IMG/VR virus record: IMGVR_UViG_3300040771_000047
Span: 64,593 to 89,262 of that record
Reading direction: 5' to 3' (one strand)
DNA length: 24,670 nucleotides
Origin: a virus
How positions within the stretch are numbered: the stretch's first letter is position 1; every line of letters starts with the position of its first letter. Both the position numbers and the translations under genes were made by a program. Of this stretch, positions 1-14,243 are shown piece by piece. The notes under the pieces were generated by a model that had not been told where the DNA came from, did not search any database, and saw nothing but the letters and a program-made list of their open reading frames with translations.

Positions 1-396
1 TTCTTGGTACTTAACAGACTCCATTTCTTGCCTTTCTATGGCTCTTTCCTTTTCTATTCTTCTATATTCACCATAACTTAGTTTTTCTTCGTATATACCT
101 AAAGCTTTTCTAGCTGCATCAACCTGCTCAAATGCAGAATCAATTGGTACAACTCTTTCATTGTAAACTTTTTCGTAAGGAGCTCTATCCAAAGTATTAG
201 AACTTATAGTGTATAAAGCTTCTAATTCTAGTCCGTAGGCTTTATTAGTATCCTTAATTTGTGCAGCATGAAAAGCATTGAACTCATCTTTTCTAGATAA
301 GTTCAATACTCTTGTTTCATTTATAATCCCGTCTTTCTGTAATGCATCTATAGCATTAAGTTTTGAAAGTTCATGTTTTAAAATATTACAGCTCAT
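1..396 (-). CDS. 5' part of a gene truncated by the window edge; probably another large virion cargo protein
   Basis: Translated by hand and absent from the ORF track. ATG is at 396-394, 11 nt after the preceding stop. The frame is open for 132 codons to position 1: MSCNILKHELSKLNAIDALQKDGIINETRVLNLSRKDEFNAF...ERAIERQEMESVKYQE. The product is inferred from position only. Confidence 0.8.
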   Translation of the reverse strand, partial: MSCNILKHELSKLNAIDALQKDGIINETRVLNLSRKDEFNAFHAAQIKDTNKAYGLELEALYTISSNTLDRAPYEKVYNERVVPIDSAFEQVDAARKALGIYEEKLSYGEYRRIEKERAIERQEMESVKYQE

Positions 397-407
397 ACTT
401 TATTTTA

Positions 408-3400
408 TTAAATTGCTAGTCCACCTTCACAAGGTAATTTTTCTTCCTCTGACAAAACTACTTCATTTTCTTCAGCTACACTATTATTGTCAATCATATT
501 ATCAGCATCATCAAATAAAGATGTTTGATTAGGGTCTTTGAATTGCTCTTCAGCCTTTTCATTAAAATTAAATCCTAAGTCATTAAAGAATCTAATAAAA
601 GCTGCTTTTTCTTCAGCATTTACATTTTCAGCCATCATTTCTTGGTATATCTCTTCTAACTTATATTCTTCATAGTCTAATGATTCACTTCTACTTATCT
701 GAACATTCCAATTAGTTACAGGTACAGCATAATTTGACATTCTACCATTAAGACTTTTAGCTACTAAAGTGTCCAAATTTTCTAATGCAAAATCTAAATT
801 ATCTTTAGTAATTGGAATATACTCTTGGGAAGCACCGTTATTAACAGGTTTTGCTATATAATACTTACCATTAGTAAGTTGATTGTTAATATTTTCTTCA
901 TCTAGTTTAGCAAATGTTTCTTTATTAGCTACTAATTGTTTGATTTTATCAACTTCTTTAGTAGTATCAATAGTTTGTACACCTAATCTCTTACTGTCTA
1001 AACTACCAAGTTGAGAATTTGATAGAAGTTCATAATAAGATAACTGTTGTTCAGCTCTTTCTTTTTCAATGAATCTTAGAGACTTCCCTACTGCGTCATG
1101 TGCCACACTTCCTTCTTTTAAATTAGGGTAGATGTTTTCCATAAACTTCATTATAGTAGCTAATATTTTATCTAGGTAAGATACTCCAGATTTCATATAA
1201 GGTACTTGAGACATAGCATCTTGGAAATTTTTACTAGTCAAAGACATAGTCATAAATTCCTTGATATTATACCCAGCATAATAAATACTCTTATCATCCT
1301 CAGAAAAAGACAACTTATTATCTTTTTTGAATTTCATACTAGCAATTTCCGCAGCATATTTTGCTCTAAACTGACTAAATGAAATATGTAAAGCAGTTAC
1401 ATGAGTAGGTATTGTTACATCCTTTCTAAGGTTTATAAAATCACTATCATAATATTTTTCTAATTCTCTAGTTGTTATTGTGTGTATGTACTCATGTAAG
1501 AAAGTAACAGCAGTTTTTTCTACAGAAACTCCTGTAGTCATTGAAGGTTTTAGTTTTACTTTTAAATCACTTACATAAGAAGCTCCGGCTCCAACAATGT
1601 CAGTACCTAATTCAAAGCCAATATTTGGATTACCAAATTGCTCTAAGAATTTAGCAGCTTCAGTAATAAAAGCAAAGTCCTCACTCAAAACTAAATTTTT
1701 AATTTTTTCAAGTACTGTACCTACTGTAGTGTCCTCTTCTAATTTTAAGTCTACTGCTTCATTACCTTCTAATAGTGAGTTGTTTGCTTTAAGGTTTTGA
1801 ATCTTAGTTTCTCCTAAAGAAAATGCACTAAGTACTCCATATTGATACTCTGAAACACCATTTTGTCCTAGTAAACTAATTCTTTGGTAATTCATGGCAC
1901 CTACATTCTGGTATAGAACATAGCTAGTCTTTCCTTTATCTTTTATTGCCATAGACAAAAAAGGTAAATTCTTGCCTTTAGACTCTTCTTTTAGTGTAAA
2001 AGTTCCTTCTGCATTCTTTACATTAGTTATTCCCTTAGAATAGATTTTTGGTGCTAAAGAAGGGTTATGTTGGAACCTTTGTTTAGTAAATGTACTAAAA
2101 CTTCCCTCAACAGGTGATAAACCTAGAAGTCTTCCAAACATACCATTTTCTCCACCTTCAGGCGTATTCATTCTATTAGGGTTCAAACCTTGTAACTTTC
2201 TATTTGCAGATTTAAATACTCTTCTAGCTTCAGACTTACCTTCAGCATTTATGAATCTTGACTGCTCATACTTTCCAATAGTCTCTAATACTTCAACTGG
2301 TATAAATTTTACAAATTGAGTAGCTTCTTGTACACCACCTTCTAAGTAAGAATAAGCTATTAGGTCTTCAGCTAACATTCTAGTAGTATATGCTTCACCA
2401 TTCCTGTTTGGAAGTTTAAGGTTAGACATAATTAAACTTGGAATTGCATTATACATTAACTCTTGATTATTGTTATCAACAGATGTATTACTGTAATTAA
2501 TTAAAGATAACTCTCCCGGAAGCTTACCTGTAATAAATTCAAAAGAACTAATTAATGCATTTTTCTTTAATGAACTTATACCTCTTGTATTTGTTGCACT
2601 TCTAAGAGTATCTTTTATGTAAGTGGATAATGAAGTATTACTTTCATCATCTATAAGAGTTTCATGTCTCTTAACTTGAGCATTACCTTCAAAGATGTTA
2701 TTAGCTTCACTAGAAAAAAGATATTTCTTAATGTCAGTTAAAACTTCTTCATAAGATTCTTCATTAGCTCTGTCAGGGTCCTTCCCAGATAACCTAAGGT
2801 TCTCTTCTACAATTGCAGTTAAGCTTGTATCTTGATAAGGAAAGAAATCTTTAAATAAAGTATGACCTAACTGAAGACCTGTAATAGCTATCTGACCTTG
2901 TGGAGTTGTTGGTTTTACCCAATACTCACCTATATCATAGTATCCTTCAGGTTTAGTGAAATACATTTCTTTAGAAAGAAAATCTCCAATTAACTTAGAA
3001 GCGTTACCTAGTACACTGTTTTCAGTAATTTTCTTAAGTTTTTCATATTTTAATTGAGACTCAATTATAGATTTACCTAAGTTGTTAGTGTCTACAACAC
3101 TTTGAGCATTAGCTACTTCTGCAACTTCTTTCTCTAGGTTGACATAGTTCATAAGAGCAGCAGCTTGAGTTTCAGATGTAGTGTCATTCTTTTCAATAGA
3201 CTCTAACATATTCTTTCCTGTAAGCTTACCTCCCATAAAGTCCTCTACTTCTTGATTATCAATAGCATTTCTAAACTTCCATATTCCTTTTACTTCTGTA
3301 TAGATTATACTTCCAGAAGTTAGAGTGGATATTGTAGTTGCTATTAATTCATTTTTATTTATATACTCTCCTAATACACCTTTAGCATCTCTTAATTGTT

Positions 3401-6400
3401 TGTTAAGGTTAACAATTACTGGTTGAGATAACATTAAGAAAGGAATAGAATTACCATTTTCATCTTTGTCAAATCCCATTAAAGTTAAGTAAGCATCTAT
3501 GTTGATAGTTTGCTCATTAACTCCTACTCTACCAAGTACTTGTTCTTTCTCATTATCTGTAGCAATGTTTTCTCTTTCAGCTAATACATCCGCGATACTT
3601 CTGCTTCCATCTACTGTCATTTCTTGACCAAGAATACCTTTAGCAGTGTAATTACCTATAGTTAAAGGTTTAGGATTTCCTTTCTTGTCTCTGATAAAAA
3701 TTTCACTACCATTTTGTTGTATAAGTCCATTAAGAGTAGTAAAGTTAGCATACACTCCAATAGCAGCTTTTCCAATAGTTCCTAAATCCATCTTTTGCTT
3801 TTGGTAAGCATAAGATAAAAAAGTGAAATTACTATTCATTTGTTCATACTCAAGTTTAGCTTCATCACGAGAAAGACCCTCTGCTTTTCTTTCGTTAATG
3901 TACTTGTTCTTTTCTCCTAAAGAGTTTATTTTTTCTAATTTTTCAGCTTGTTCTTTAGCATAATCAATAGAAAGTATCTTATTAATTTTACTTTGAATTT
4001 TTACACTAGGGTTATTGTAAACAGCTAAATGAACTTTGATAAATTCATTTTCTGCTAGTTTTCTTTCTAGTTCTGATTCAAGATAGTTTAACTTATCTAT
4101 GATGTCCAATTGAGGTAAAAGCAAAGATTCTAATGATTCTTCATCCAATAAGTTACCTTGGCCCTGTACAAAAGCACTGAACAATTCATTTGCAAAACTA
4201 CTTTTACGAGAAGTACTTGTGTTTTCTAAATTAAACTTTTCAATTTTATCTTTTAGACCTGAAGTTATGGTTTCAATGTCAGCTCTGTCTAGTACTTTAA
4301 TTTTACCACTATCAGTTAAAAAGTGGTTTAATTGGTAAGCAGATTCTTTATCAACATCATAATCAAGACCTTTTTGTTTAGTGAAGTTCTTAGGAACAAT
4401 CATTAAATCCCCTTGTATAGCTGGAAGTATGCCAACTATTTCTATACTTGAACCAGATACGTGAGAAGATGTAGGAGTTCTAAAAGAGAAGTTGTTGAAC
4501 AACATAGGGTCAATCATATCTTCTTTTAATCCTAGACTTCCATTTTCGTTTCTTTTTAGATACTTAGCATTAGCTACGTTTCCTGTCTTTAAGTCAAAAC
4601 CTTCAAATAAATCAATTAACTCATTGTTGTTATCCTTAAACTTAGAGGTTACAAATACTTGTGCTTTATGAAACTTAACTTCACCATTTTCAGAAGTTGT
4701 ATGTGTACCTTGTAATTCTTTACCATTATAGTTATCTAGGTATATAACATCTGATTCTTCAATACCTTCCATAGTTTCAGAGTATGCAAAACCACTTTCA
4801 GAACCTGCTACAAAAGCATTTCCTGGCATTTTGTGATGCATAACAGCATTACCAATAAGAGAGTTTAATAAAGACTCATATCTGTTACTGTCAGAAGATA
4901 GCCATAGAGGAGTTTTAAATTCATAATAGTATCCTAACTTAGCTTGTAGTTTTTCAATCTTTAAACCTCTTACAGATTTAAGACTCATACCTTTTGCTAT
5001 AGCTTCTTTAACTAATAAGTCTTGTAAGTTCTTAACAAATTTAGCTTCATTCTTTACAGTACCATCTTCTTCTAAGCCTAGTTTAGAAAATAATTGTTTC
5101 TTCTTAATGTCAACAATCTTAGCAAAAGATTCATTGTAATGGTCATACAATTGTTTACCAGTAAGAGTTTCTGTGTCAGTAGGGTTCAATTTAAAACCAT
5201 CTTCGTTTATAACCCCATCACCAAACAAAAGCTTAAAGAACTGAGTACCCATAGATACTGTATCACTTTTCTTCTTATCAGATTTAAAAGGTACATCTTG
5301 TTGTATTCTAAAGTTATCTCTACTTAAAACAACTACTGAGTTATTAGCTCCATTTTCATCAAATGTTTTTGTAGCTGCATTGTAACCATTCATTACCTTC
5401 TCTAAAGACTGTTTGTCAAAAGGGTTTACTTCATTTTCTGATTTTACACTACCTACCTTATTAGCTGTTTTAAAGGATGCTCTTACACCATTTCCTGTAG
5501 CTTCATGTAGCTCTTCCATTTTCAATCTAAGGTCATTTAACCTGTTCCCTTGTGTGAACTGAGGTAATAATGGGAAAGATGAAGACTTAATATAAACTAC
5601 TCTATTCATGTCCCAACCTTTATTAAAATAAGTTCCTGTATGAACTGGTTTAATTGGCTGAAGAACTATTGCTAGTTGTTGTTTATTTAAATGTCCTTCT
5701 CTTCCCGGCTTAGCTAGAGTAGCAAGGATACCTGCATGCTCTTCATCACTCATTCTACCTAATCTGTAAATAATATCTACATGCTCTTTAGCTGTAGTAT
5801 ACTCTTGTGCATCAGTAGATTCAAGGTCAAAATACCCATCCAAGCTAGGAAACTTTTTAGCCAAACCATCTCTAATTACTTTCATATTAGATTTAGCAGC
5901 TGCAAGAATAGCAGGGTCAATTTTGCCTACTCCTTGCTCCATATCAGCTACAACCTTAGCTTCTATGGCATATTTTTCTAATAAAGGTTTAGCTTCAGCA
6001 ATACCTTTTTCTCCGTAAAATAATCCAACTAAATACTCACTGTTCTCAGCAATATCAATACTATCTTTTAAGAAAATTTGATTGTAGTTTTCTTTGTAAG
6101 AGTTTGCTATTTTATTACCTGGAGCTATTAACAGGGCTAATCTTTTTCCAAGATTTACTCCAATTGTTTTATTTAAAGAAATGTATTGTTCATCAGTTTT
6201 AGTGTTTTCTGGTCCCACTTCTCCAACTTGTTTGTCTTTTGCATACATAGAAACATCTCCTGCAAAGACCTTAAACAAATCTGCTTGATGTAACATACTG
6301 TTTAAGACATAGTCATAAACTCCTAATTTAAAATCTTTAGATGGAGTTAAACTTATGTCAGCTTTTGAAAAGTACTCAGCATCAAACATTTTATTACTCT

Positions 6401-9400
6401 TAACTACTTGTCCTTCCCATAATTTACTGAAGTGGTTCACTTCTTTTTCTACTACATTCTCTAGTGTAGCTACAAACTTATCTTTGTGAAGTTCTACTAT
6501 TTTATCATAGTCTAAGTTTCCTTGAGAAGCTAGTTCTCCAAGTATGTCAATAATTCTAACTCCCTTCTCATCTTTTACATTGTTCATTCCTGGAATAAGA
6601 TGAAAAACCTGAGCTGCTTTATCATAGTCAGCTACATTAGTAGACTTAACATTATTATGAAAGTTTACTATTCTTTTTAATTCTGAAGCTACTAATTGGT
6701 CAAAAAGTAAATCTGTAGTTCTTTTAGTTAAACTTTGATTTCCATTTTCTTTTGGATAAAAAGCTGTACTTGCATCTGCTAAGAAGTCAAAAACACCTGT
6801 TCTAAGAAATACATTAGTAGTCTTGTCAGACATAGTAAGGTTAAGCATGTTTGCCATTCTAATAGTAAACCCACCTATTTTAGTATTTTTACTAATTTCT
6901 TCACCTTTTCTATCTTGAAAACCTGTAAGAGTTGTCAAGTAGTAGTCCATATCAGATAAATTATTTAACCCTGCTTTAGTAGGTGTGTCTCCTTTTTCTT
7001 TAAAAGCAGTTATACCAACATGGCTAATTTTAAATAAAGATTTAAAGTTTTTGTTTTCTTTTAATAACTGTAACATTATAGAGTTATCAGAAAAAGATAA
7101 ACTTTGTAAGTCCTCTATTAAAGTATTATTACTGTCCGAAGCACTTCTCTTAAGTTCAGCTACTCTATCAGTAATGAACTTAGTAGGAACTTGTGTAGAA
7201 ATGTCCTTACCTGAATCTCTAAATGCTAGAGAAATAAGTTGAGGATTGTATAACGCTTCTACGGCACTGATACCATTTATAACCCCTGACATTTCTTTAA
7301 AAACTGTATTTTCAGAAGTAAATTCGTAGTCTAAAGGATTTGCTTTAGCTTCATTTAAAAATTTAAGTATAGGGTAAGTTAACCCTCCTGCTTCTAAAGT
7401 TAGTAAATCATTAAAATCATAATCTTGTTTATTATAAATACCCTTTGCAACTATTTGGTCCCAACTTCCCTCTTCTAAATAAAGACCTATTTGTTCTAGC
7501 CAAGACCTAAGTTCTTTAGTTCCATTTTCAGTTTTTACATCTATAGCTGCAAATTGTGTCAATAAACTCTCAGCAAACTCAGCATTAAATGAACCTTCTT
7601 TAGTATATAGATTAGAAGCTTTAGTATCATTTATCCATCTTTTCTTTAGTACTCTTGTAATTTCATTCGCGTTAGTATCATACATCTTAAGCTTAACTCC
7701 TGATGCTGTGTTTTCATACATTCCAAATTTAGATTGAAGTGTGTGCTTAACAAAAGTAGTAAGAAACTTGTTCTTAATTTGTTGACTAGAACCTTCCAAT
7801 TTAGCTAAAACATCAGCTACAAAAGGAGTTTTACTTTCTTTTAATTTTCTTATTAGTGAGTCATAGTCAGAAGGTATTTCTGAAGATAATGTAATGTTTT
7901 TGGTCAACTGGTTAAAAACATCATTGAAGTCCATATAGGATGGTAAGCCTAAGTACCCACTAACCGGAACACCTTTCTTATCATACACTGCAATACTGTT
8001 CAAAAACAATCTAAGGTCAGGGTCTATAGAACCTTTAAAGTCAGCTTCAATAGATTCTTTACCAAATTGTTTAACATCTAAAATATCTTCTGCATCTGTT
8101 TCTGAATCTACAATCTTAGTTTGTTGTTTTAGGTCTTCAAAAGCTTTATCAAAAAGCTTAGTGTACTCATTAACAATTGTGTTTAAGTTAGTCAAGGTTT
8201 CTTCATACTTATCTTTAACTTGTAAAGATTTAGCATCTGTGTTACCTTCAAGTTTAGCCTGCATTACTGTAATCTTACTTTTAAGATTGTTTACTATTTG
8301 AGTAAGTTCAAACTCAATAGCCACACTTAAATTATTTTTTACTTCAGGAGTAATTTTCTTTTTAGGGTCTAATTTGTATTCATCTACAATTTTCTTGCCT
8401 ATGTTAGATACAATAAACTTTCTAATAGCTTGCTCTTGCTCAATATCTAAGTTACCGGTAAGATTAAAAATACTAACAATTGCATCAACATTGTCAATCA
8501 TTTCATCATACAACTCATCTTCTACTTCTATACCTAGAGTATTTAAGAAATCTATGTGTTCACTAACTTCAACTTTTTTCTTTTCTTCAAGCTTTTTAAA
8601 TACCGGAGCAACAGTTTCTTCCACTAAAGTAGAAGCTGGTTTCTCTTGTTTAGCTACAGATTTATAGTTTATATGAATTACAGGTTGAATTATTGTTGCG
8701 TAAATAGGTTTAGCTTCAGTACCTACATTAAAAGCTTTTATGTTAGTTTTAGAGTTAGCTTTAATATAATCATGGTAAGTCATTTTCTTACCATCTTTTT
8801 GTAGTAGTTCAACTTTTTCTGTACCAACTGCTACCATACCTACTTTAGAACCTAATGCAGCACTCAAAGTGTGCTGAGTTAGCATATCTTTTGCTATAAT
8901 ATCTTCTATAGAGTAATTAGCAAACAGTCTTTTGTATAATATTAAAGAACTACTATCATAACTTTTTCTATCTGTAGGAAGTCTTAATTCCATAAGAGTA
9001 GCTGCACTAATTTGAAAATGCATTCTAATAAAATCAGTCAAGTCCTGAATCTTTGAAATATTATAGCCCGTAGCATCTAGTATAGGGTCTACAAAAGTTT
9101 CTATTATATACCTTCTATCTTCTGGAGTATTGTTTGTAGTACTAGGAAAGTTCTCTTGTCTTCCATTTTTAGCATTAATGGTCTGTCTTTGAGAAACGGC
9201 TTTGTACTTATTATCAGAAAGTAAGTTAAAAATATGGATAGCATTTGCGACACTTTCTACTTGACTTGCATTAGGATATCTTTCAAATTTACTTGCTCTA
9301 TAAGTTTCTACAACTTTACCATCAGCCAGTACATCAGTACCTACTCTATACACATAGAAAGAATGTCCTAAAGAACTTCCATCAAAATCTTCTTCTTTAT

Positions 9401-12400
9401 TTAATAATACTTTACTTCCTTTTGCAAAACCTTCATCAAGATTTTGAAGTAACCCTTTACTACCTGTTCTATTTAAAGTAGCAACAACAGACTGAGGATT
9501 AGATTCTTCTAAAGTAATCTGTTCTTGTTCCATAGGAATTACGTACATAATACCTTCTTTACTTCTTCTTTCTACAGTTACTTCGGTTAAACCTGAATTG
9601 ATATTTTCTCTTAAAGCTCTGGCATTAGCTATACCTGCATTGATATGATCTTGCCAAGGTTTAGTAGGGTTAGCTTGATTAGTAGATGGTCCAAAAGGGT
9701 TATCAATATCATAAGCATTATACCCATCAATATCTTTTACATAACCTATTGGCTCTCCTTTCATACTAGTATAGTACATAGGGACTTTGTCAAGAAATTC
9801 TTGAGTGCTTCTAAAGTTAGGGTTAGCAGCTTCTCTCCTAGATAACCAGGAAGAGAATGGAGTAAGAACTCTTTCTCCTTTAGCATTTCTACCATTTGAA
9901 ACCATAGTAGTTGCCCAATCTGATTCAGGAGCAATCTTAACTCCCATAGGTGCTCCATTAGGATAAGCATCAGGGTCTAATAAAGCTAAGTAATTTACTT
10001 TATCAACTGGATTTAATTCAGTTCCAGAAGTTACCTTACGAACTACTCCATCTTCACCTGTAACTATTTCATAAGCTTGTGCAGAATAACCTATCCAAGG
10101 TGTTAAACCTTGACTAACTCTTTCAGTTAAAGTCTTGTTAGCCTGTTCTACATGAGAAGGATTATTTTCATCATCAAACAAAGTATCTTGAACCACTACA
10201 CCATCAGCAATAGTTTGTTCTAATTTTGCTGTTTGTGTTACCACAGTCTCCACAGGAGGTACAGAAATTACTTTCTGAGGACTTTCATACATATTAAAAA
10301 TAGAATCTGTTATAGACTCTATATCTGATGCAATATCAAAGAACTTATTATACAAGTTCATTGTTTCAGCACTAGTAACAGTATGACCTAGTTCAGTCCA
10401 ACCTCTTACAAGATGATTGTAATACTTCTTAACATTATTTTTATCTTTTGAATACTTATAAAACTGCTCCATTACATCAGTAAAACTTGGAGAAGGATTA
10501 TTAGTAAGAGTTGCAACCATACCATAGATATGGGCAATACCTTTTTTCATCACTTCTAATTGTTCCGGAGTATAAGCATAGTTATCTATACTGTAATCTA
10601 TCAGTTCTCCTTCATTAGCAGCAACGTCCTCATCATCAAAACTATCATCTAGGTCTGAAGTGAAATTTTCTATGTCAGATATGATATTACCTTCTGCATC
10701 TTCATCTCTTACTATTACTACTTCTGGAGTAATAGGAGTTTGATTAGGTGTTTCAGCAGCAGCACTCGCTTGAGCACTTGCTTGCATATCCTTATACCTT
10801 TTAAAATTCATAGTTAAAACAGCAAATTGGTCAAATTTAGTTTTGATGTCTTTGTAAGCTTTATCATTAATCTTATTGTCAGTTGCCCATTTACCTACAA
10901 AGTTTTCTTTGTTCTTTTCAAACAAGAAATCTATAAGTTTAGTATTAACTACAAGTTGCCCCTCTGCATCAAAAGTAACATTCTCAGTATCATTAAGATA
11001 CTCATCATCTACGTTGTCAATGCCTTCAGATTTAGTTTTTCTATCTTGTATATCACCCAAGAGGTCTTGCATTTCTTTCTCAACTCTTTGCTTATTTATT
11101 TCATGTTGAGGTTCAGTTCTAAGTTTAGCTACTATTTTATTAGTACTATCTAAAACTTCTTGCATTTGCTCTGAAGCTTTTAAACTGTTACTATAGTTAG
11201 AAACACCTTCGTGTCCTCTCTCAAGCATCTCCAATTCAGCAGGACTAAATGTAGTATTACCTGGAGTAAAAATTTCATCTATATTGAAACCTCTTCCCGG
11301 ATAATCTGCTTCAATCTCTTTACGAGCTTGTACAGAAAGTGTAGAACTGATAGCTTTATTATCCTCAATACCTTCTTCTAAGTTCATCTTCTCATATTGA
11401 AATTTTAAGAGTTTATTTAATAATGGATGGTCTTTATATACTTCAGATATTCTGTTCAATTCAGTTACATGCTCACTAGCTCTTACTAAAGTCTTTTGAG
11501 TTTCAACATTTAAACTTCCCTTGGCTCCTGCTCTTTTAAGTACTGTAGATAATTCAGATAATTGACCTGCTTGCACAGCATTTGAAACTACGTTATTAAA
11601 CATAAGTTTCTCTAGCATATCAGCAGACTCAGTTTTACCTTCTGCTCTAAATCTTTTAATTTCTTTATTTTGAAGTTCTATATTGTTAGCCCCTAAAGAC
11701 TGTATGTTAAGTATTTGATTTAGGTCAGAATCTTTATTAGCAAGTCTTAACCCATTGATAGCTTCTCTTGTACTATTTCTTGCATCATTGTACTTTCTAA
11801 TATCAGAGTACTTAGCTTCTTTGTTTGCATTTTTATTAGCTTGTGCTATTGCAGTGTTAGAAGATAAATTAGCTGCTTTAAAGTTTACAACTTGGTTCTT
11901 ATATTGTTCAGTTTCATCAATACTAAGAGTACCACTTGCTAACTTAGCTTCAGCATCTTTTATTCTTACATTGTTTTCAGCAATGGATTCAGTATGATTC
12001 TTTTTTAAAGCAGTGGCCTCATCTATTCTAGCTTGACCTAACTTGTTAACTCCTAGTTGGTAAGAAGTCTGCATAGAACCAACAGCACCAAATCCAGCAT
12101 TTAATAATGCTGTTTGAATTAGAATGTCTTTATTTGATTGTAAATCAAAAGTGGTATCCATAAATTCTTTAGGGTCCCCTTCAAATATACTGTTAACTGC
12201 ACTTGTAAAATATTCTTCAGGAAGCTCTTCTACAGTACCAGTTATTTTCTGTCCATTAAAAGTTGGCACCAAAGCTTTACCTGATAATTTCTTATCAAGG
12301 AATTTAGTTAGTTTGGTACTGTTAACAAGTTTTGCTCTACCTGTAGCTATTTCTTCTCCCAATTCCCCGACAGCTTTTTCTGTTCTAATAGCAAATTTAC

Positions 12401-14243
12401 CTAGTCCGGAAAATGCGGATTTACCCTTACCTAATTTAACTAATCCCTTGCCTAGATTTCCTAGTAATGCACCTGTGTAAACTTCAGCTAAACCTTCAGC
12501 AGCTTGTTTTCTAAGTCCAGTCATACTGGCTTCAAACAAACCTAAAGGTCTGAAAGTTTCTATTTCCTCTTCTAAAGTTTGTTCACCTGCAGAAAACCTT
12601 TTACCTAACTTAATTTCCATGTGAGCTACTTCTGCTTCTTCTTCTGGAGTTAAGTTAGCTTTAGCTCCTAATGTAGCTAATTTGTTTTTGTAAGATTGTG
12701 CAATTCCTTCATTAGTCCTTTGCATCAATTTGTAATAGTTGTCTTGAACATAGATATTTGTAATCTTACCTTGTTCATCTCTAACTACATTAGAACCTTT
12801 GGATAAACCTTCATTTATAAAGTGAGGGTCCATTAAATTCATAGCTTCAAACTTAGCACCAAGTACTGCACCATCCATCCCAACAGCTGTTGTTTTGGTA
12901 AGCATTTTAGATACTTTATCAGGACCCATACTTCTGTAAAGGTCTTTAGAAGCTTGAGAAATGTAACCTTTCTCTAAAAAAGCTAACTTTTCTCCTACTT
13001 CTGCTACTCTAGTTCCTCTTGCAACTATTCCTGCACCTTTACTTAATAATCCAGCAGCACCTTCAGTTAACATCATTTCAGCTATCATATCTAGGGAACC
13101 TCCCATTTGATTAATAGTGTTATGACCAAATGATTTCATGTCAGCAGTCTGAGCCTGTGCTTCATCCCTTAAAGAATAAGATTGTAGCATTGCCATATCC
13201 TTCTCAGGAATAGCACTAAGTCTTACTTGAGCTTCTTCATCAGTTTCTCCTTCGGGGCCTACAAGTTGGTTCTGATATTTCTTTTCTAACTCATCTTTCT
13301 GAAAGAAGTTTATTAATTGACTAGTTTGATGAGGAAAAGGTATTATCATTCCTTCCTTTTCATTAGTATCCACAATAGTAGAAATAAGTTCTCCTATAAC
13401 GTAACCTACTTTAGGGTCTAGTACATTATCTAAACCTCTAATCTCACGTTCATTATTATAAAGTTCTACATTTAGTCTTCCTCTCTCAAATGAGTCAGTA
13501 CTAGCATCATGCAGTCTTTGTATAGTTTCATTTTGTTTTTGTATCTGCTGCTTTTTAAGCTTAACTCCAGGAGCTTTAGCTCCTTTAAGCTCTTCTTGCA
13601 GCTTTTCTACTTTCTTTTGGTCATTTGATGCAGGTAGTATAGAATCAAATCCTGCATCTAAAAGTCCACTTACTCCATTTACTAAACTTGGAGCAATGTT
13701 TCCAAAACCTTTGGCAATTTTTTCTCCCCACCCAGCATCGGGACCAGACTCTAAGTATTCCATTTTAGATACAGATGCACCTTTAGTTTGCTTAGCTAAA
13801 AGGGCATCTAATTCTTGTTGCTTTTGTACAAAAATAGGGTTAGCTTTAGTTTCTTCAGCTATTTTATATAAAGCAGCTTCTTCTTGTTCTTGAACTTCTG
13901 GTGCAACTACAGGTCCAACAGGTTTAACCTTATTAGCTACTGCTTTTCTAGCATCAGCATCTTTTTGCTGAGCTTGAGCAAGTACTTTTTGTTTATCAGC
14001 ATAGTCTTTTTTATAAGCTGCTTCTTTTTCAACTAATTCAAGAGCTACTTGTTTTGCTCTTTCTTCTTCAGCTTGTTTTTTCTCAAAATCTGCAACATAC
14101 CTAGCAACGTTATCTTGTTCTTCAATTGATAAAGTATTTTTATCAATTTCTTTTTGTATTTTTTCGTATTCACTTTTTCTGTTTTGAAGAGTTCCTTTAT
14201 AATCTTCAACGTTAATACCATTTACACGATGTTGCTTACCCAT
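408..14243 (-). CDS. 4611-aa virion-associated multidomain protein: ejection-like N-terminal region, crAss-type two-barrel DNA-dependent RNA polymerase, C-terminal zincin metallopeptidase
   Basis: The ORF is uninterrupted and ends in TAA TAA. RNAP motifs: catalytic GLDYDVDK (D3294-D3298), upstream FRTP (R3255), TDAQEY (D2811), QPIKP...YIKSS (K2865, K2886) and ATDNEK (D3563). Zincin motifs: HEYIH (H4250) with downstream NIKEF (E4329). Confidence 0.88.
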   Translation of the reverse strand: MGKQHRVNGINVEDYKGTLQNRKSEYEKIQKEIDKNTLSIEEQDNVARYVADFEKKQAEEERAKQVALELVEKEAAYKKDYADKQKVLAQAQQKDADARKAVANKVKPVGPVVAPEVQEQEEAALYKIAEETKANPIFVQKQQELDALLAKQTKGASVSKMEYLESGPDAGWGEKIAKGFGNIAPSLVNGVSGLLDAGFDSILPASNDQKKVEKLQEELKGAKAPGVKLKKQQIQKQNETIQRLHDASTDSFERGRLNVELYNNEREIRGLDNVLDPKVGYVIGELISTIVDTNEKEGMIIPFPHQTSQLINFFQKDELEKKYQNQLVGPEGETDEEAQVRLSAIPEKDMAMLQSYSLRDEAQAQTADMKSFGHNTINQMGGSLDMIAEMMLTEGAAGLLSKGAGIVARGTRVAEVGEKLAFLEKGYISQASKDLYRSMGPDKVSKMLTKTTAVGMDGAVLGAKFEAMNLMDPHFINEGLSKGSNVVRDEQGKITNIYVQDNYYKLMQRTNEGIAQSYKNKLATLGAKANLTPEEEAEVAHMEIKLGKRFSAGEQTLEEEIETFRPLGLFEASMTGLRKQAAEGLAEVYTGALLGNLGKGLVKLGKGKSAFSGLGKFAIRTEKAVGELGEEIATGRAKLVNSTKLTKFLDKKLSGKALVPTFNGQKITGTVEELPEEYFTSAVNSIFEGDPKEFMDTTFDLQSNKDILIQTALLNAGFGAVGSMQTSYQLGVNKLGQARIDEATALKKNHTESIAENNVRIKDAEAKLASGTLSIDETEQYKNQVVNFKAANLSSNTAIAQANKNANKEAKYSDIRKYNDARNSTREAINGLRLANKDSDLNQILNIQSLGANNIELQNKEIKRFRAEGKTESADMLEKLMFNNVVSNAVQAGQLSELSTVLKRAGAKGSLNVETQKTLVRASEHVTELNRISEVYKDHPLLNKLLKFQYEKMNLEEGIEDNKAISSTLSVQARKEIEADYPGRGFNIDEIFTPGNTTFSPAELEMLERGHEGVSNYSNSLKASEQMQEVLDSTNKIVAKLRTEPQHEINKQRVEKEMQDLLGDIQDRKTKSEGIDNVDDEYLNDTENVTFDAEGQLVVNTKLIDFLFEKNKENFVGKWATDNKINDKAYKDIKTKFDQFAVLTMNFKRYKDMQASAQASAAAETPNQTPITPEVVIVRDEDAEGNIISDIENFTSDLDDSFDDEDVAANEGELIDYSIDNYAYTPEQLEVMKKGIAHIYGMVATLTNNPSPSFTDVMEQFYKYSKDKNNVKKYYNHLVRGWTELGHTVTSAETMNLYNKFFDIASDIESITDSIFNMYESPQKVISVPPVETVVTQTAKLEQTIADGVVVQDTLFDDENNPSHVEQANKTLTERVSQGLTPWIGYSAQAYEIVTGEDGVVRKVTSGTELNPVDKVNYLALLDPDAYPNGAPMGVKIAPESDWATTMVSNGRNAKGERVLTPFSSWLSRREAANPNFRSTQEFLDKVPMYYTSMKGEPIGYVKDIDGYNAYDIDNPFGPSTNQANPTKPWQDHINAGIANARALRENINSGLTEVTVERRSKEGIMYVIPMEQEQITLEESNPQSVVATLNRTGSKGLLQNLDEGFAKGSKVLLNKEEDFDGSSLGHSFYVYRVGTDVLADGKVVETYRASKFERYPNASQVESVANAIHIFNLLSDNKYKAVSQRQTINAKNGRQENFPSTTNNTPEDRRYIIETFVDPILDATGYNISKIQDLTDFIRMHFQISAATLMELRLPTDRKSYDSSSLILYKRLFANYSIEDIIAKDMLTQHTLSAALGSKVGMVAVGTEKVELLQKDGKKMTYHDYIKANSKTNIKAFNVGTEAKPIYATIIQPVIHINYKSVAKQEKPASTLVEETVAPVFKKLEEKKKVEVSEHIDFLNTLGIEVEDELYDEMIDNVDAIVSIFNLTGNLDIEQEQAIRKFIVSNIGKKIVDEYKLDPKKKITPEVKNNLSVAIEFELTQIVNNLKSKITVMQAKLEGNTDAKSLQVKDKYEETLTNLNTIVNEYTKLFDKAFEDLKQQTKIVDSETDAEDILDVKQFGKESIEADFKGSIDPDLRLFLNSIAVYDKKGVPVSGYLGLPSYMDFNDVFNQLTKNITLSSEIPSDYDSLIRKLKESKTPFVADVLAKLEGSSQQIKNKFLTTFVKHTLQSKFGMYENTASGVKLKMYDTNANEITRVLKKRWINDTKASNLYTKEGSFNAEFAESLLTQFAAIDVKTENGTKELRSWLEQIGLYLEEGSWDQIVAKGIYNKQDYDFNDLLTLEAGGLTYPILKFLNEAKANPLDYEFTSENTVFKEMSGVINGISAVEALYNPQLISLAFRDSGKDISTQVPTKFITDRVAELKRSASDSNNTLIEDLQSLSFSDNSIMLQLLKENKNFKSLFKISHVGITAFKEKGDTPTKAGLNNLSDMDYYLTTLTGFQDRKGEEISKNTKIGGFTIRMANMLNLTMSDKTTNVFLRTGVFDFLADASTAFYPKENGNQSLTKRTTDLLFDQLVASELKRIVNFHNNVKSTNVADYDKAAQVFHLIPGMNNVKDEKGVRIIDILGELASQGNLDYDKIVELHKDKFVATLENVVEKEVNHFSKLWEGQVVKSNKMFDAEYFSKADISLTPSKDFKLGVYDYVLNSMLHQADLFKVFAGDVSMYAKDKQVGEVGPENTKTDEQYISLNKTIGVNLGKRLALLIAPGNKIANSYKENYNQIFLKDSIDIAENSEYLVGLFYGEKGIAEAKPLLEKYAIEAKVVADMEQGVGKIDPAILAAAKSNMKVIRDGLAKKFPSLDGYFDLESTDAQEYTTAKEHVDIIYRLGRMSDEEHAGILATLAKPGREGHLNKQQLAIVLQPIKPVHTGTYFNKGWDMNRVVYIKSSSFPLLPQFTQGNRLNDLRLKMEELHEATGNGVRASFKTANKVGSVKSENEVNPFDKQSLEKVMNGYNAATKTFDENGANNSVVVLSRDNFRIQQDVPFKSDKKKSDTVSMGTQFFKLLFGDGVINEDGFKLNPTDTETLTGKQLYDHYNESFAKIVDIKKKQLFSKLGLEEDGTVKNEAKFVKNLQDLLVKEAIAKGMSLKSVRGLKIEKLQAKLGYYYEFKTPLWLSSDSNRYESLLNSLIGNAVMHHKMPGNAFVAGSESGFAYSETMEGIEESDVIYLDNYNGKELQGTHTTSENGEVKFHKAQVFVTSKFKDNNNELIDLFEGFDLKTGNVANAKYLKRNENGSLGLKEDMIDPMLFNNFSFRTPTSSHVSGSSIEIVGILPAIQGDLMIVPKNFTKQKGLDYDVDKESAYQLNHFLTDSGKIKVLDRADIETITSGLKDKIEKFNLENTSTSRKSSFANELFSAFVQGQGNLLDEESLESLLLPQLDIIDKLNYLESELERKLAENEFIKVHLAVYNNPSVKIQSKINKILSIDYAKEQAEKLEKINSLGEKNKYINERKAEGLSRDEAKLEYEQMNSNFTFLSYAYQKQKMDLGTIGKAAIGVYANFTTLNGLIQQNGSEIFIRDKKGNPKPLTIGNYTAKGILGQEMTVDGSRSIADVLAERENIATDNEKEQVLGRVGVNEQTINIDAYLTLMGFDKDENGNSIPFLMLSQPVIVNLNKQLRDAKGVLGEYINKNELIATTISTLTSGSIIYTEVKGIWKFRNAIDNQEVEDFMGGKLTGKNMLESIEKNDTTSETQAAALMNYVNLEKEVAEVANAQSVVDTNNLGKSIIESQLKYEKLKKITENSVLGNASKLIGDFLSKEMYFTKPEGYYDIGEYWVKPTTPQGQIAITGLQLGHTLFKDFFPYQDTSLTAIVEENLRLSGKDPDRANEESYEEVLTDIKKYLFSSEANNIFEGNAQVKRHETLIDDESNTSLSTYIKDTLRSATNTRGISSLKKNALISSFEFITGKLPGELSLINYSNTSVDNNNQELMYNAIPSLIMSNLKLPNRNGEAYTTRMLAEDLIAYSYLEGGVQEATQFVKFIPVEVLETIGKYEQSRFINAEGKSEARRVFKSANRKLQGLNPNRMNTPEGGENGMFGRLLGLSPVEGSFSTFTKQRFQHNPSLAPKIYSKGITNVKNAEGTFTLKEESKGKNLPFLSMAIKDKGKTSYVLYQNVGAMNYQRISLLGQNGVSEYQYGVLSAFSLGETKIQNLKANNSLLEGNEAVDLKLEEDTTVGTVLEKIKNLVLSEDFAFITEAAKFLEQFGNPNIGFELGTDIVGAGASYVSDLKVKLKPSMTTGVSVEKTAVTFLHEYIHTITTRELEKYYDSDFINLRKDVTIPTHVTALHISFSQFRAKYAAEIASMKFKKDNKLSFSEDDKSIYYAGYNIKEFMTMSLTSKNFQDAMSQVPYMKSGVSYLDKILATIMKFMENIYPNLKEGSVAHDAVGKSLRFIEKERAEQQLSYYELLSNSQLGSLDSKRLGVQTIDTTKEVDKIKQLVANKETFAKLDEENINNQLTNGKYYIAKPVNNGASQEYIPITKDNLDFALENLDTLVAKSLNGRMSNYAVPVTNWNVQISRSESLDYEEYKLEEIYQEMMAENVNAEEKAAFIRFFNDLGFNFNEKAEEQFKDPNQTSLFDDADNMIDNNSVAEENEVVLSEEEKLPCEGGLAI
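1045..1720 (-). other. Zincin-like metallopeptidase domain within the giant protein (HEYIH at 1482-1496; boundaries approximate)
   Basis: TFLHEYIHTIT is followed about 75 aa later by YNIKEFMTMSLTSKNFQ. This HEXXH...EF pattern is typical of metallopeptidases in phage polyvalent proteins. Confidence 0.8.
4350..4364 (-). other. RNA polymerase catalytic DxDxD motif (DYDVD)
   Basis: Context is FRTPTSSHVS...GDLMIVPKNFTKQKGLDYDVDK. The RxP-to-DxDxD arrangement fits the double-psi beta-barrel of two-barrel polymerases. crAss-like RNAPs have a non-Gly residue at position 4 (DFDID in phi14:2 gp66). Confidence 0.88.

Follow-up and report, generated by a model that had tools for sequence, protein, structure and literature searches.

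A giant open reading frame of an Fpv-like Flavobacterium phage joins a predicted crAss-type virion RNA polymerase to a zincin-like domain in a candidate injected cargo chain

How crAss-like phages deliver and switch on the RNA polymerase (RNAP) that they inject is still an open question. In phage phi14:2, gp66 and two adjacent gene products are present in virions, and the crystal structure of gp66 captured an inactive conformation, about which the authors ask whether proteolysis activates the enzyme (Drobysheva et al.). RNAP-associated proteins of crAss001 have likewise been found in virions by mass spectrometry. Self-cleavage of crAss-like RNAP chains was proposed by Drobysheva et al., who cite a statement on polyproteins from Yutin et al. 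(2018), and autoprocessing by a zincin is a general model for polyvalent proteins (Iyer et al., 2017, PMC5512222); both the fused arrangement and the self-cleavage idea are already published for crAss-like phages, the idea having been in print since 2017–2020. A second precedent is the virion RNAP (vRNAP) of phage N4, in which an N-terminal domain, the RNAP, an HExxH-bearing C1 domain and a C2 domain follow one another (N4 structure paper) and which is reported to be packaged unprocessed (Iyer et al., 2017, PMC5512222). Here we describe a giant open reading frame (ORF) of 4,611 codons in a stretch of viral DNA of 24,670 nucleotides (IMG/VR record IMGVR_UViG_3300040771_000047, positions 64,593–89,262), the whole of which we call the window. 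A first-pass annotation had read this ORF as a candidate self-processing transcription polyprotein; we compare it with its relatives and weigh whether the chain has to be cut to work.

The ORF lies on the minus strand at nt 408–14,243 of the window, is free of internal stops and encodes 4,611 amino acids (aa), comprising a unit that we call chain X (blocks A and B), a virion RNAP (block C), a zincin (block D) and a tail. The IMG/VR record of 89,262 bases is rated 95% complete, and the window is its final 24.7 kb. The nearest named relatives are 29 records of cultured Flavobacterium psychrophilum phages of the genus Fipvunavirus (Fpv1-4, Fpv20 and the FPSV series), one of which, Fpv3, was placed beside the crAss-like assemblage by Yutin et al. 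(2021). The window is the end of the record of an FpV4/Fpv-like Flavobacterium phage, and a collinear giant ORF is present in 29/29 of the cultured Fpv-type phage records. In the window, co-oriented genes of 1,851, 773 and 572 aa lie upstream of the giant and one more gene lies downstream; the order 1,851/773/572/4,611/1,651 aa is mirrored in Fpv20 by 1,783/628/732/4,419/1,596 aa (gp30–gp34), which are syntenic and collinear. Fpv20 gp33 (4,419 aa, annotated as a "virion structural protein") is 46% identical over aa 1269–4409, with weaker matches further upstream.

Further, an uninterrupted giant ORF recurs in relatives at 25–73% identity, the fused form is common to 54 dereplicated IMG/VR loci, and 222 proteins of 2.5–8 thousand residues in the protein collection match the giant at E ≤ 1e-3. 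The profile phrog_16227 of PHROGs (4,401 positions) matches it at E = 0. Because the frame recurs in cultured phages, IMG/VR loci and database proteins, we conclude that it is a conserved gene and not a product of chance or of an assembly join. The whole giant gave no Pfam family at E ≤ 1 besides two spurious matches, and a PDB sequence search was likewise uninformative. As the first-pass annotation had stated, the ORF is about twice the length of phi14:2 gp66 (2,180 aa), and the motifs DYDVD and HEYIH and a sole cysteine, C4605, were all located in its translation.

To divide the chain into modules, we measured conservation and inserted columns along the giant in an alignment of 34 giant homologues and built a hidden Markov model (HMM) for each block. 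Judged by its sequence, the well-conserved block C (aa 1930–4104; nt 1,932–8,456, minus strand) is a crAss-type virion RNAP and an orthologue of phi14:2 gp66, the virion RNA polymerase whose crystal structure was solved (PDB 6VR4). The block C HMM matched gp66 at E 1.2e-55 in four collinear stretches over gp66 residues 132–1785, blastp matched it at 1e-11 and 1e-7 across the DFDID motif, and tblastn gave matches to Crassvirales genes annotated as "putative RNAP catalytic subunit". The DFDID of gp66 aligns with DYDVD at aa 3294–3298 of the giant (nt 4,350–4,364, minus strand), a DxDxD polymerase motif in which D3294, D3296 and D3298 are invariant in the 34 giants, as is K3299. Collinearity with gp66 also suggests that block C contains two double-psi beta-barrels. 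In two related loci (L067 and L068), a 594-aa ORF with cysteines (CxxC) interrupts the polymerase gene, leaving halves of 2,422 and 1,118 aa; this ORF could represent a mobile element or a gene carried by an intron.

Block D (aa 4105–4400; nt 1,044–1,931, minus strand) adjoins block C without a gap and is judged to be a divergent domain of the gluzincin type (zincin-like metallopeptidases) that is very probably catalytic in most lineages. Its HMM matched residues 126–354 of phi14:2 gp65, whose HExxH is at residue 245, at E 2.2e-14. In the giant, the HExxH zinc-binding and catalytic motif reads HEYIH at aa 4250–4254 (nt 1,482–1,496, minus strand) and lies in a predicted helix, in agreement with the earlier numbering of E4251. 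E4251 and H4254 are present in 67/67 unique sequences, and H4250 (window nt 1,494–1,496) is present in 55/67, with Lys in 8 and Glu in 4. The candidate third zinc ligand, E4329 (nt 1,257–1,259, minus strand), lies in a downstream helix (model residues 227–236) and is Glu in 66/66 aligned sequences, where it is followed by the invariant F4330. The 12 of the 67 unique sequences with Lys or Glu at the first His position were noted in L041, L042, L052, L054–L057, L074, L079 and L089; in the Lys lineage (L054, L056 and L057), a second, canonical zincin occurs further down the chain.

An AlphaFold2 model of the zincin has a predicted local distance difference test score (pLDDT) of 84–96 over aa 4165–4370 and consists of helices at model residues 74–101, strands at 109–131 forming a three-stranded sheet, the HExxH helix at 141–162 and the later Glu helix. 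The Foldseek matches of this model were weak and mostly to zincins. A second fold search, independent of Foldseek, placed the PhiM1 ejection protein gp48 (8vb2_A) at the top (Z 7.5, 160 residues aligned), with further matches to anthrax lethal factor (Z 7.2–7.8), Pro-Pro endopeptidases, minigluzincins, Spartan and ArdC; the top matches were almost all zincins at Z 5–7.8, middling values that support the fold but do not prove it. The model also aligned to N4 vRNAP residues 2124–2362 (Z 5.3), which correspond to the HExxH-bearing C1 subdomain. Consistent with these results, a profile of the zincin alignment searched against the PDB matched 9sfn_G, which is described as an "internal virion protein", over the HExxH at E 0.0012 and PhiM1 gp48 at E 0.033, whereas matches to minigluzincins, IrrE and Spartan were weak (E 0.05–1.5). 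No Pfam zincin model, including those of polyvalent-protein zincins, matched block D.

When aa 4101–4611 were searched against 1.8 billion representative proteins, the module turned up both in giants, close to their C-terminus, and in proteins of smaller size. Ejection proteins of podoviruses may commonly carry a zincin-like module; when the PhiM1 paper was searched by term, no mention of a metalloprotease was returned. In Intestiviridae, Suoliviridae and crAss001-like Steigviridae an HExxH domain precedes the polymerase, whereas in phi14:2 and the Fpv-like clade it follows (among our locus labels, L006 is crAss002 gp32, L007 is Rudgehvirus, L008 is cr118_1 gp14 and L010 is cr128_1 gp51). Similarity between the HExxH domains before and after the polymerase is weak (blastp 6e-4; HMM i-E 0.007).

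The remaining parts of the map, all on the minus strand, are block A (aa 1–1154; nt 10,782–14,243), which is fast-evolving, charged and poorly conserved; linker 1 (aa 1155–1215; nt 10,599–10,781), which is acidic and of low complexity; block B (aa 1216–1864; nt 8,652–10,598), a moderately conserved alpha/beta module that forms the C-terminal half of X; linker 2 (aa 1865–1929; nt 8,457–8,651), which is acidic and marks the boundary between X and the polymerase; and a variable tail (aa 4401–4611; nt 411–1,043). Linker 1 contains 28% Asp plus Glu with a net charge of -16, and linker 2 contains 25% Asp plus Glu. Inserted columns number 402 at aa 1151–1200 and ∼550 at aa 1851–1950, far above anywhere else in the giant. 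The tail has a conservation of 0.07–0.29 with 40–84% gaps and a pLDDT mostly below 50, and its final 60 residues are 27% Asp plus Glu. Thus charge and inserted columns uphold the earlier division of the protein by acidic linkers near aa 1155–1215 and 1865–1920.

It is at the two acidic linkers and in the tail that the gene is divided, or additional enzyme domains are inserted, in relatives: linker 1 is an insertion site, linker 2 is a gene split point, and the modules are encoded as 2, 3 or 4 genes depending on the relative. At linker 2, homologues carry a Kinase-PolyVal domain (P0098, E 1.5e-35) or an NTP_transf_2 nucleotidyltransferase (P0111), and in the tail they carry an AAA_33 P-loop kinase (P0053) or an ART-PolyVal domain (P0120, below the Pfam cut-off). 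A further homologue, P0116, has three zincin copies between modules, one of them between blocks A and B; according to a precomputed Pfam list, P0116 also has helicase domains. Because relatives insert accessory enzymes at linker 2 or in the tail, we conclude that the giant family behaves as a polyvalent-protein scaffold. Polyvalent proteins are large multidomain proteins of the virion block that combine a zincin with unrelated enzymatic domains, and the giant combines a zincin with a polymerase.

To follow blocks A and B outside the fused form, we fetched 79 IMG/VR loci by means of the alignment of giants, called their ORFs and searched these with the block A and block B HMMs. Stand-alone X proteins (1,473–2,937 aa; E 1e-15 to 3e-67 for the two HMMs) were found directly upstream of a shorter polymerase gene. 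The block B HMM matched such proteins in L067 (1,646 aa, E 3e-67), L055 (2,000 aa, E 6e-51), L047 (1,473 aa, E 3e-49), L087 (2,937 aa, E 1e-40) and L072 (2,013 aa, E 2e-27), and the end of block B lies ∼40–270 residues from the C-terminus of X in L067, L055 and L047. Similarly, the block A HMM matched the N-terminal part of X in L067 and an incomplete 957-residue ORF in L042. Because the block HMMs match stand-alone proteins, blocks A and B form a unit that certain relatives encode in a gene of its own, split from the polymerase at linker 2. The expectation that the N-terminal ∼1,900 aa would match proteins encoded separately elsewhere is therefore borne out by the X genes upstream of the polymerase in IMG/VR relatives. 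Other searches for separate relatives of aa 1–1929 were less productive: a word-indexed search for shorter proteins gave one 113-aa fragment and a single-protein scan of IMG/VR gave none.

Block A has low conservation across the giants, and the first ∼1,270 residues of the Fpv proteins are barely alignable. In block B, W1282, P1488, R1545, P1583, Y1823, Q1853 and P1854 are invariant, and an AlphaFold2 model (mean pLDDT 74; mostly 80–95 over aa 1380–1865) shows a mixed alpha/beta structure. Compared with solved structures, this model gave no convincing fold match (Foldseek E >0.1; the best VIA Z, 7.0, covered only an 87-residue helical bundle), and in the ESM Atlas block B gave sub-threshold leads alone (LPD23 and LPD1/LPD5 at 0.84–0.85). 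PHROGs gave no informative link for block A, block B, gp67 or gp65, and Pfam gave none for X. Membrane insertion by block A was rejected, as neither A nor B contains a 19-residue window at Kyte-Doolittle 1.2 or a predicted transmembrane helix; block A does contain one uncharged stretch of 27 residues (aa 707–733).

In the comparison with phi14:2 gp65–gp67, two of the three proteins found their counterparts, gp66 in block C and the N-terminal zincin of gp65 in block D. However, the HMMs of blocks A and B matched no phi14:2 protein, gp67 included, in an HMM-to-sequence comparison; a profile-profile comparison with Crassvirales gp67-type proteins gave a weak signal at 36% probability. With no gp67 HMM similarity, no transmembrane helix and no recognised fold for block B, the earlier description of the N-terminus as "ejection-like" lacks direct support.

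The four consecutive proteins of 773, 572, 4,611 and 1,651 aa contain 2 cysteines in 7,607 aa, whereas the 0.87% Cys of the remaining proteome would predict ∼66; the proteins of 773 and 572 aa are cysteine-free. The first of the two, C4605 (nt 429–431, minus strand), is the sole cysteine of the giant and stands seven residues from the C-terminus; the second is Cys3 of the next protein, which we call Y (nt 388–390, minus strand), the sole cysteine of Y, which faces C4605 across the junction. A cysteine is present in the last 12 residues of 127/128 giants, with a median of one Cys per protein, and the Fpv giant has the same terminal Cys, the next Fpv protein starting with MAC. We counted junctions in 69 dereplicated loci, scoring a pair where a Cys occurs in the last 8 and the first 8 residues of the facing termini. 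A Cys/Cys pair occurs at 57/60 junctions after the polymerase ORF and at 0/54 junctions before the giant (background 7/101 and 5/101). The 3 exceptions are one frameshift (L044, compared with L049) and two loci with an interrupted polymerase gene.

The same pattern is seen in phi14:2 and in most of the Crassvirales examined. In phi14:2, the sole Cys of gp67 is its last residue, gp66 has Cys at 3 and 2179 only, and the sole Cys of gp65 is at 3. In cr128_1, gp51 has one Cys near its C-terminus, the polymerase has one near each end plus two internal, and gp52 has one near its N-terminus. cr118_1 and cr52_1 have a Cys near the C-terminus of the giant, with few internal, and near the N-terminus of the next protein, and in Rudgehvirus the Cys of the zincin protein is penultimate and the RNAP protein has Cys3 plus three internal. 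Overall, a facing Cys pair marks the gene boundaries inside the chain and is missing wherever a boundary is fused. In the L056 giant, Cys5996 was considered as a former junction and rejected, as it sits in an apparent inserted helicase domain.

On the basis of these counts, the facing cysteines are most simply read as an end-to-end tether, probably a disulfide made in the released virion. Because facing Cys pairs stand at the gene boundaries, the modules appear to have been selected to stay joined in the particle, and because selection keeps them joined, the fused chain would be the natural state rather than a precursor that needs cutting, although it may be cut after entry. Disulfides between virion proteins have precedents: cryo-electron microscopy of cyanophage A4 revealed one between the ejection proteins gp27 (Cys1715) and gp26 (Cys5) (PMC12002296), the single precedent here for a bond that joins facing termini, and crAss001 virions contain intersubunit disulfides. 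Further, the ejected proteins of N4-like phages are known to be depleted of cysteine. In the papers on crAss-like phages that we consulted, we found no description of a head-to-tail cysteine-linked cargo chain.

Protein Y, the start of whose gene lies in the window (nt 1–396, minus strand), begins with MSC and has 1,651 aa in full (L005:6034–10989, minus strand). A Y-family HMM, built from this protein and the corresponding ORFs of the IMG/VR loci, matched phi14:2 gp65 residues 974–1401 at E 1.6e-19, cr128_1 gp52 at E 2e-22 in three stretches between residues 272 and 1317, and cr118_1 gp15 at E 7e-6 with its best stretch at residues 1374–1490. Because the block D HMM matches the N-terminal part of gp65 and the Y HMM its C-terminal part, phi14:2 gp65 corresponds to block D plus protein Y. 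By this comparison, the gene boundary falls before the zincin in phi14:2 and after the zincin in the giant's phage. The proposal that parts encoded separately in other phages are fused here thus holds for X, the polymerase and the zincin, which form one chain, but only the zincin domain of gp65 has been fused, the rest being Y.

Taken together, the ORF is best explained as encoding a cargo chain that a crAss-like Flavobacterium phage of the Fpv/FpV4 type packages in its virion and injects. The chain would be packed in the head and threaded out via the tail, partly unfolded, ahead of the DNA; being nearly without cysteine, it fits passage through the periplasm. A link between C4605 and Cys3 of Y, probably a disulfide, would let X, polymerase, zincin and Y leave as one thread. 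After refolding, the polymerase domain would transcribe early genes, and the conserved zincin would act on something besides its own linkers or trim them optionally. A location in the virion is supported by the annotations of phi14:2 g065–g067, which cite tandem mass spectrometry (MS/MS) proteomics. We lean, with little more than even confidence, toward a fused chain that need not be cut to work, as for N4 vRNAP, and on balance regard obligatory self-cleavage as less likely than an uncut, tethered chain.

Several points weigh against this explanation. The tether is read from sequence only, and an ejection role for blocks A and B is argued only from gene position. In crAss002, gp32 has Cys2019 (penultimate) only and the annotated gp33 has no N-terminal Cys, and the polymerase-block proteins of related loci L072 and L076 are cysteine-free, as in N4. 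Our literature search found no Fpv virion proteomics, fragment sizes or phage experiment. Further, the strong conservation of its active site implies that the zincin does catalyse a reaction, and the three zincin copies between the modules of P0116 form a pattern of the kind that Iyer et al. read as autoprocessing.

These last points lead to the proposal of the first-pass annotation, a self-processing polyprotein in which the zincin cuts the acidic linkers after packaging or injection to yield an active polymerase of ∼2,200 aa. A predicted protease domain does lie inside the chain, with E4251, H4254 and E4329 conserved in all sequences and a fold whose nearest matches are endopeptidases that act on proteins (lethal factor, Pro-Pro endopeptidases, minigluzincins and Spartan), and the linkers are acidic and variable, so probably exposed. 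The zincin copies of P0116 and the accessory enzymes placed in the linkers of homologues point the same way, as do the separate polymerase polypeptide of phi14:2 and DdrB of phage P1, which has a C-terminal zincin domain and is known to be processed (Iyer et al., 2017, PMC5512222). However, the domains of N4 vRNAP follow one another in the same order and that protein reportedly remains uncut, and phi14:2 keeps its zincin despite encoding gp67, gp66 and gp65 as separate genes. Neither linker has a conserved motif (mean conservation 0.23–0.40, with varying lengths), although a protease of loose specificity could work without one. The 12/67 sequences with Lys or Glu for the first His include the fused giants L041, L074 and L079, which have no other HExxH in the large plus-strand ORFs scanned, and frequent fusion and fission at several boundaries suggest that covalent continuity is nearly neutral. 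We consider self-processing a real but somewhat unlikely explanation; the module map indicates where the chain may be cut (in linker 1, in linker 2 or in the tail) and which residues bear on the question (E4251, C4605 and Cys3 of Y).

If the chain stays whole, the zincin may instead serve the ejection apparatus as an effector or as a cell-wall enzyme, acting on a host protein or on peptidoglycan peptides, a role that is compatible with the uncut chain. Its closest matches include the podovirus ejection proteins PhiM1 gp48, which is tetrameric and comes from a T7-like phage (Z 7.5; E 0.033), and 9sfn_G (E 0.0012), and the cyanophage A4 ejection protein gp28 has a metallopeptidase domain beside a lytic transglycosylase (PMC12002296). 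Peptidoglycan digestion was named as an option by Drobysheva et al. and host-protein cleavage by Iyer et al. (PMC5512222). Consistent with such a role, the position of the zincin relative to the polymerase is not fixed: it comes second in the phage of the window but first in Intestiviridae, Suoliviridae and crAss001-like phages. However, the fold matches are of middling strength (Z <8), and no substrate can be inferred from the sequence. To our knowledge, moreover, HExxH gluzincins are not typical peptidoglycan hydrolases. We hold an effector or cell-wall role to be rather doubtful.

We think it unlikely, too, that there are two interchangeable release routes, in which disulfides between the products of separate genes would be reduced by the host cytoplasm and fused chains would be released by zincin cuts in the acidic linkers. 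If this were true, gene boundaries could drift freely and, by either route, activation of the polymerase would depend on its having reached the cytoplasm.

A cysteine switch, in which the C-terminal Cys caps the zincin zinc and keeps the zincin latent instead of tethering the chain, is very improbable. The Cys does sit in a flexible tail ∼350 residues past the HExxH, and minigluzincins, whose zymogens are inhibited by their own C-terminal tail, are among the fold matches. However, in phi14:2 the C-terminal Cys residues are on gp67 and gp66, both without a zincin, and the zincin protein gp65 has Cys3, a pattern that rules out the switch as a general explanation. The terminal Cys counts (none or one, two, one) fit a linear chain in all arrangements seen, and AlphaFold2 leaves the tail, at pLDDT <40, undocked from the active site. 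Finally, that two or three genes were joined by an assembly or frameshift error can be dismissed, for although the related contig L044 carries a frameshift that splits the giant, by comparison with its close relative L049, the ORF is unbroken in the 29 cultured phage records, the 54 dereplicated IMG/VR loci and the 222 database proteins.

Among the known systems with which the uncut cargo chain can be compared, cyanopodophage A4 resembles it in the arrangement of its cysteines, a Cys near the C-terminus of gp27 being bonded to Cys5 of the next ejection protein, gp26; A4 differs in belonging to an unrelated phage family and in having ejection proteins that are not polymerases. Polyvalent proteins (PMC5512222) are similarly huge, multidomain and delivered with the DNA, and they contain a zincin; homologues of the giant add accessory enzymes, but, unlike these, the giant of the window has no accessory enzyme domain. 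N4 gp50 (Schitoviridae) likewise enters the cell as a single giant chain, with its domains in the same order, a large C2 and suppressed cysteine. However, the polymerase of N4 belongs to the T7-like single-subunit enzymes and has no relationship to the two-barrel crAss type, and N4-like ejection proteins are essentially cysteine-free and so have no terminal pair.

Closer parallels are found within the crAss-like phages. In Suoliviridae, X and the polymerase are fused in a giant, and the protein encoded after it has ∼1.6 thousand residues and an N-terminal Cys (cr118_1, gp14 of 4,946 aa and gp15 of 1,667 aa; cr52_1, gp34 of 4,464 aa and gp35 of 1,568 aa), but, unlike in the giant here, the HExxH precedes the polymerase (in cr118_1, aa 1734 compared with the DxDxD at aa 3209). 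In cr52_1 (L009), translation of gp32–gp35 with table 11 gives 6–37 in-frame stops per gene, as would be expected from the reassignment of stop codons that is on record for some crAss-like phages. phi14:2 gp67–gp66–gp65 shares the module order and genome position and has Cys only at facing termini; it differs in using three genes where the phage of the window uses two, and blocks A and B have no significant similarity to gp67.

The direct orthologue is the gp33-type protein of Fpv/FpV4 (Fipvunavirus), which has 4,287–4,419 aa, is collinear and has the same flanking genes; the giant of the window is 190–320 aa longer, and the Fpv records lack a polymerase annotation. With cultured phages, a tractable host and a fused X-polymerase-zincin chain, the Fpv-type phages offer a convenient system for the question of how the polymerase is activated. 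Overall, the fusion is what phages of the Fpv-like clade and Suoliviridae usually have, and an ordinary feature of their genomes.

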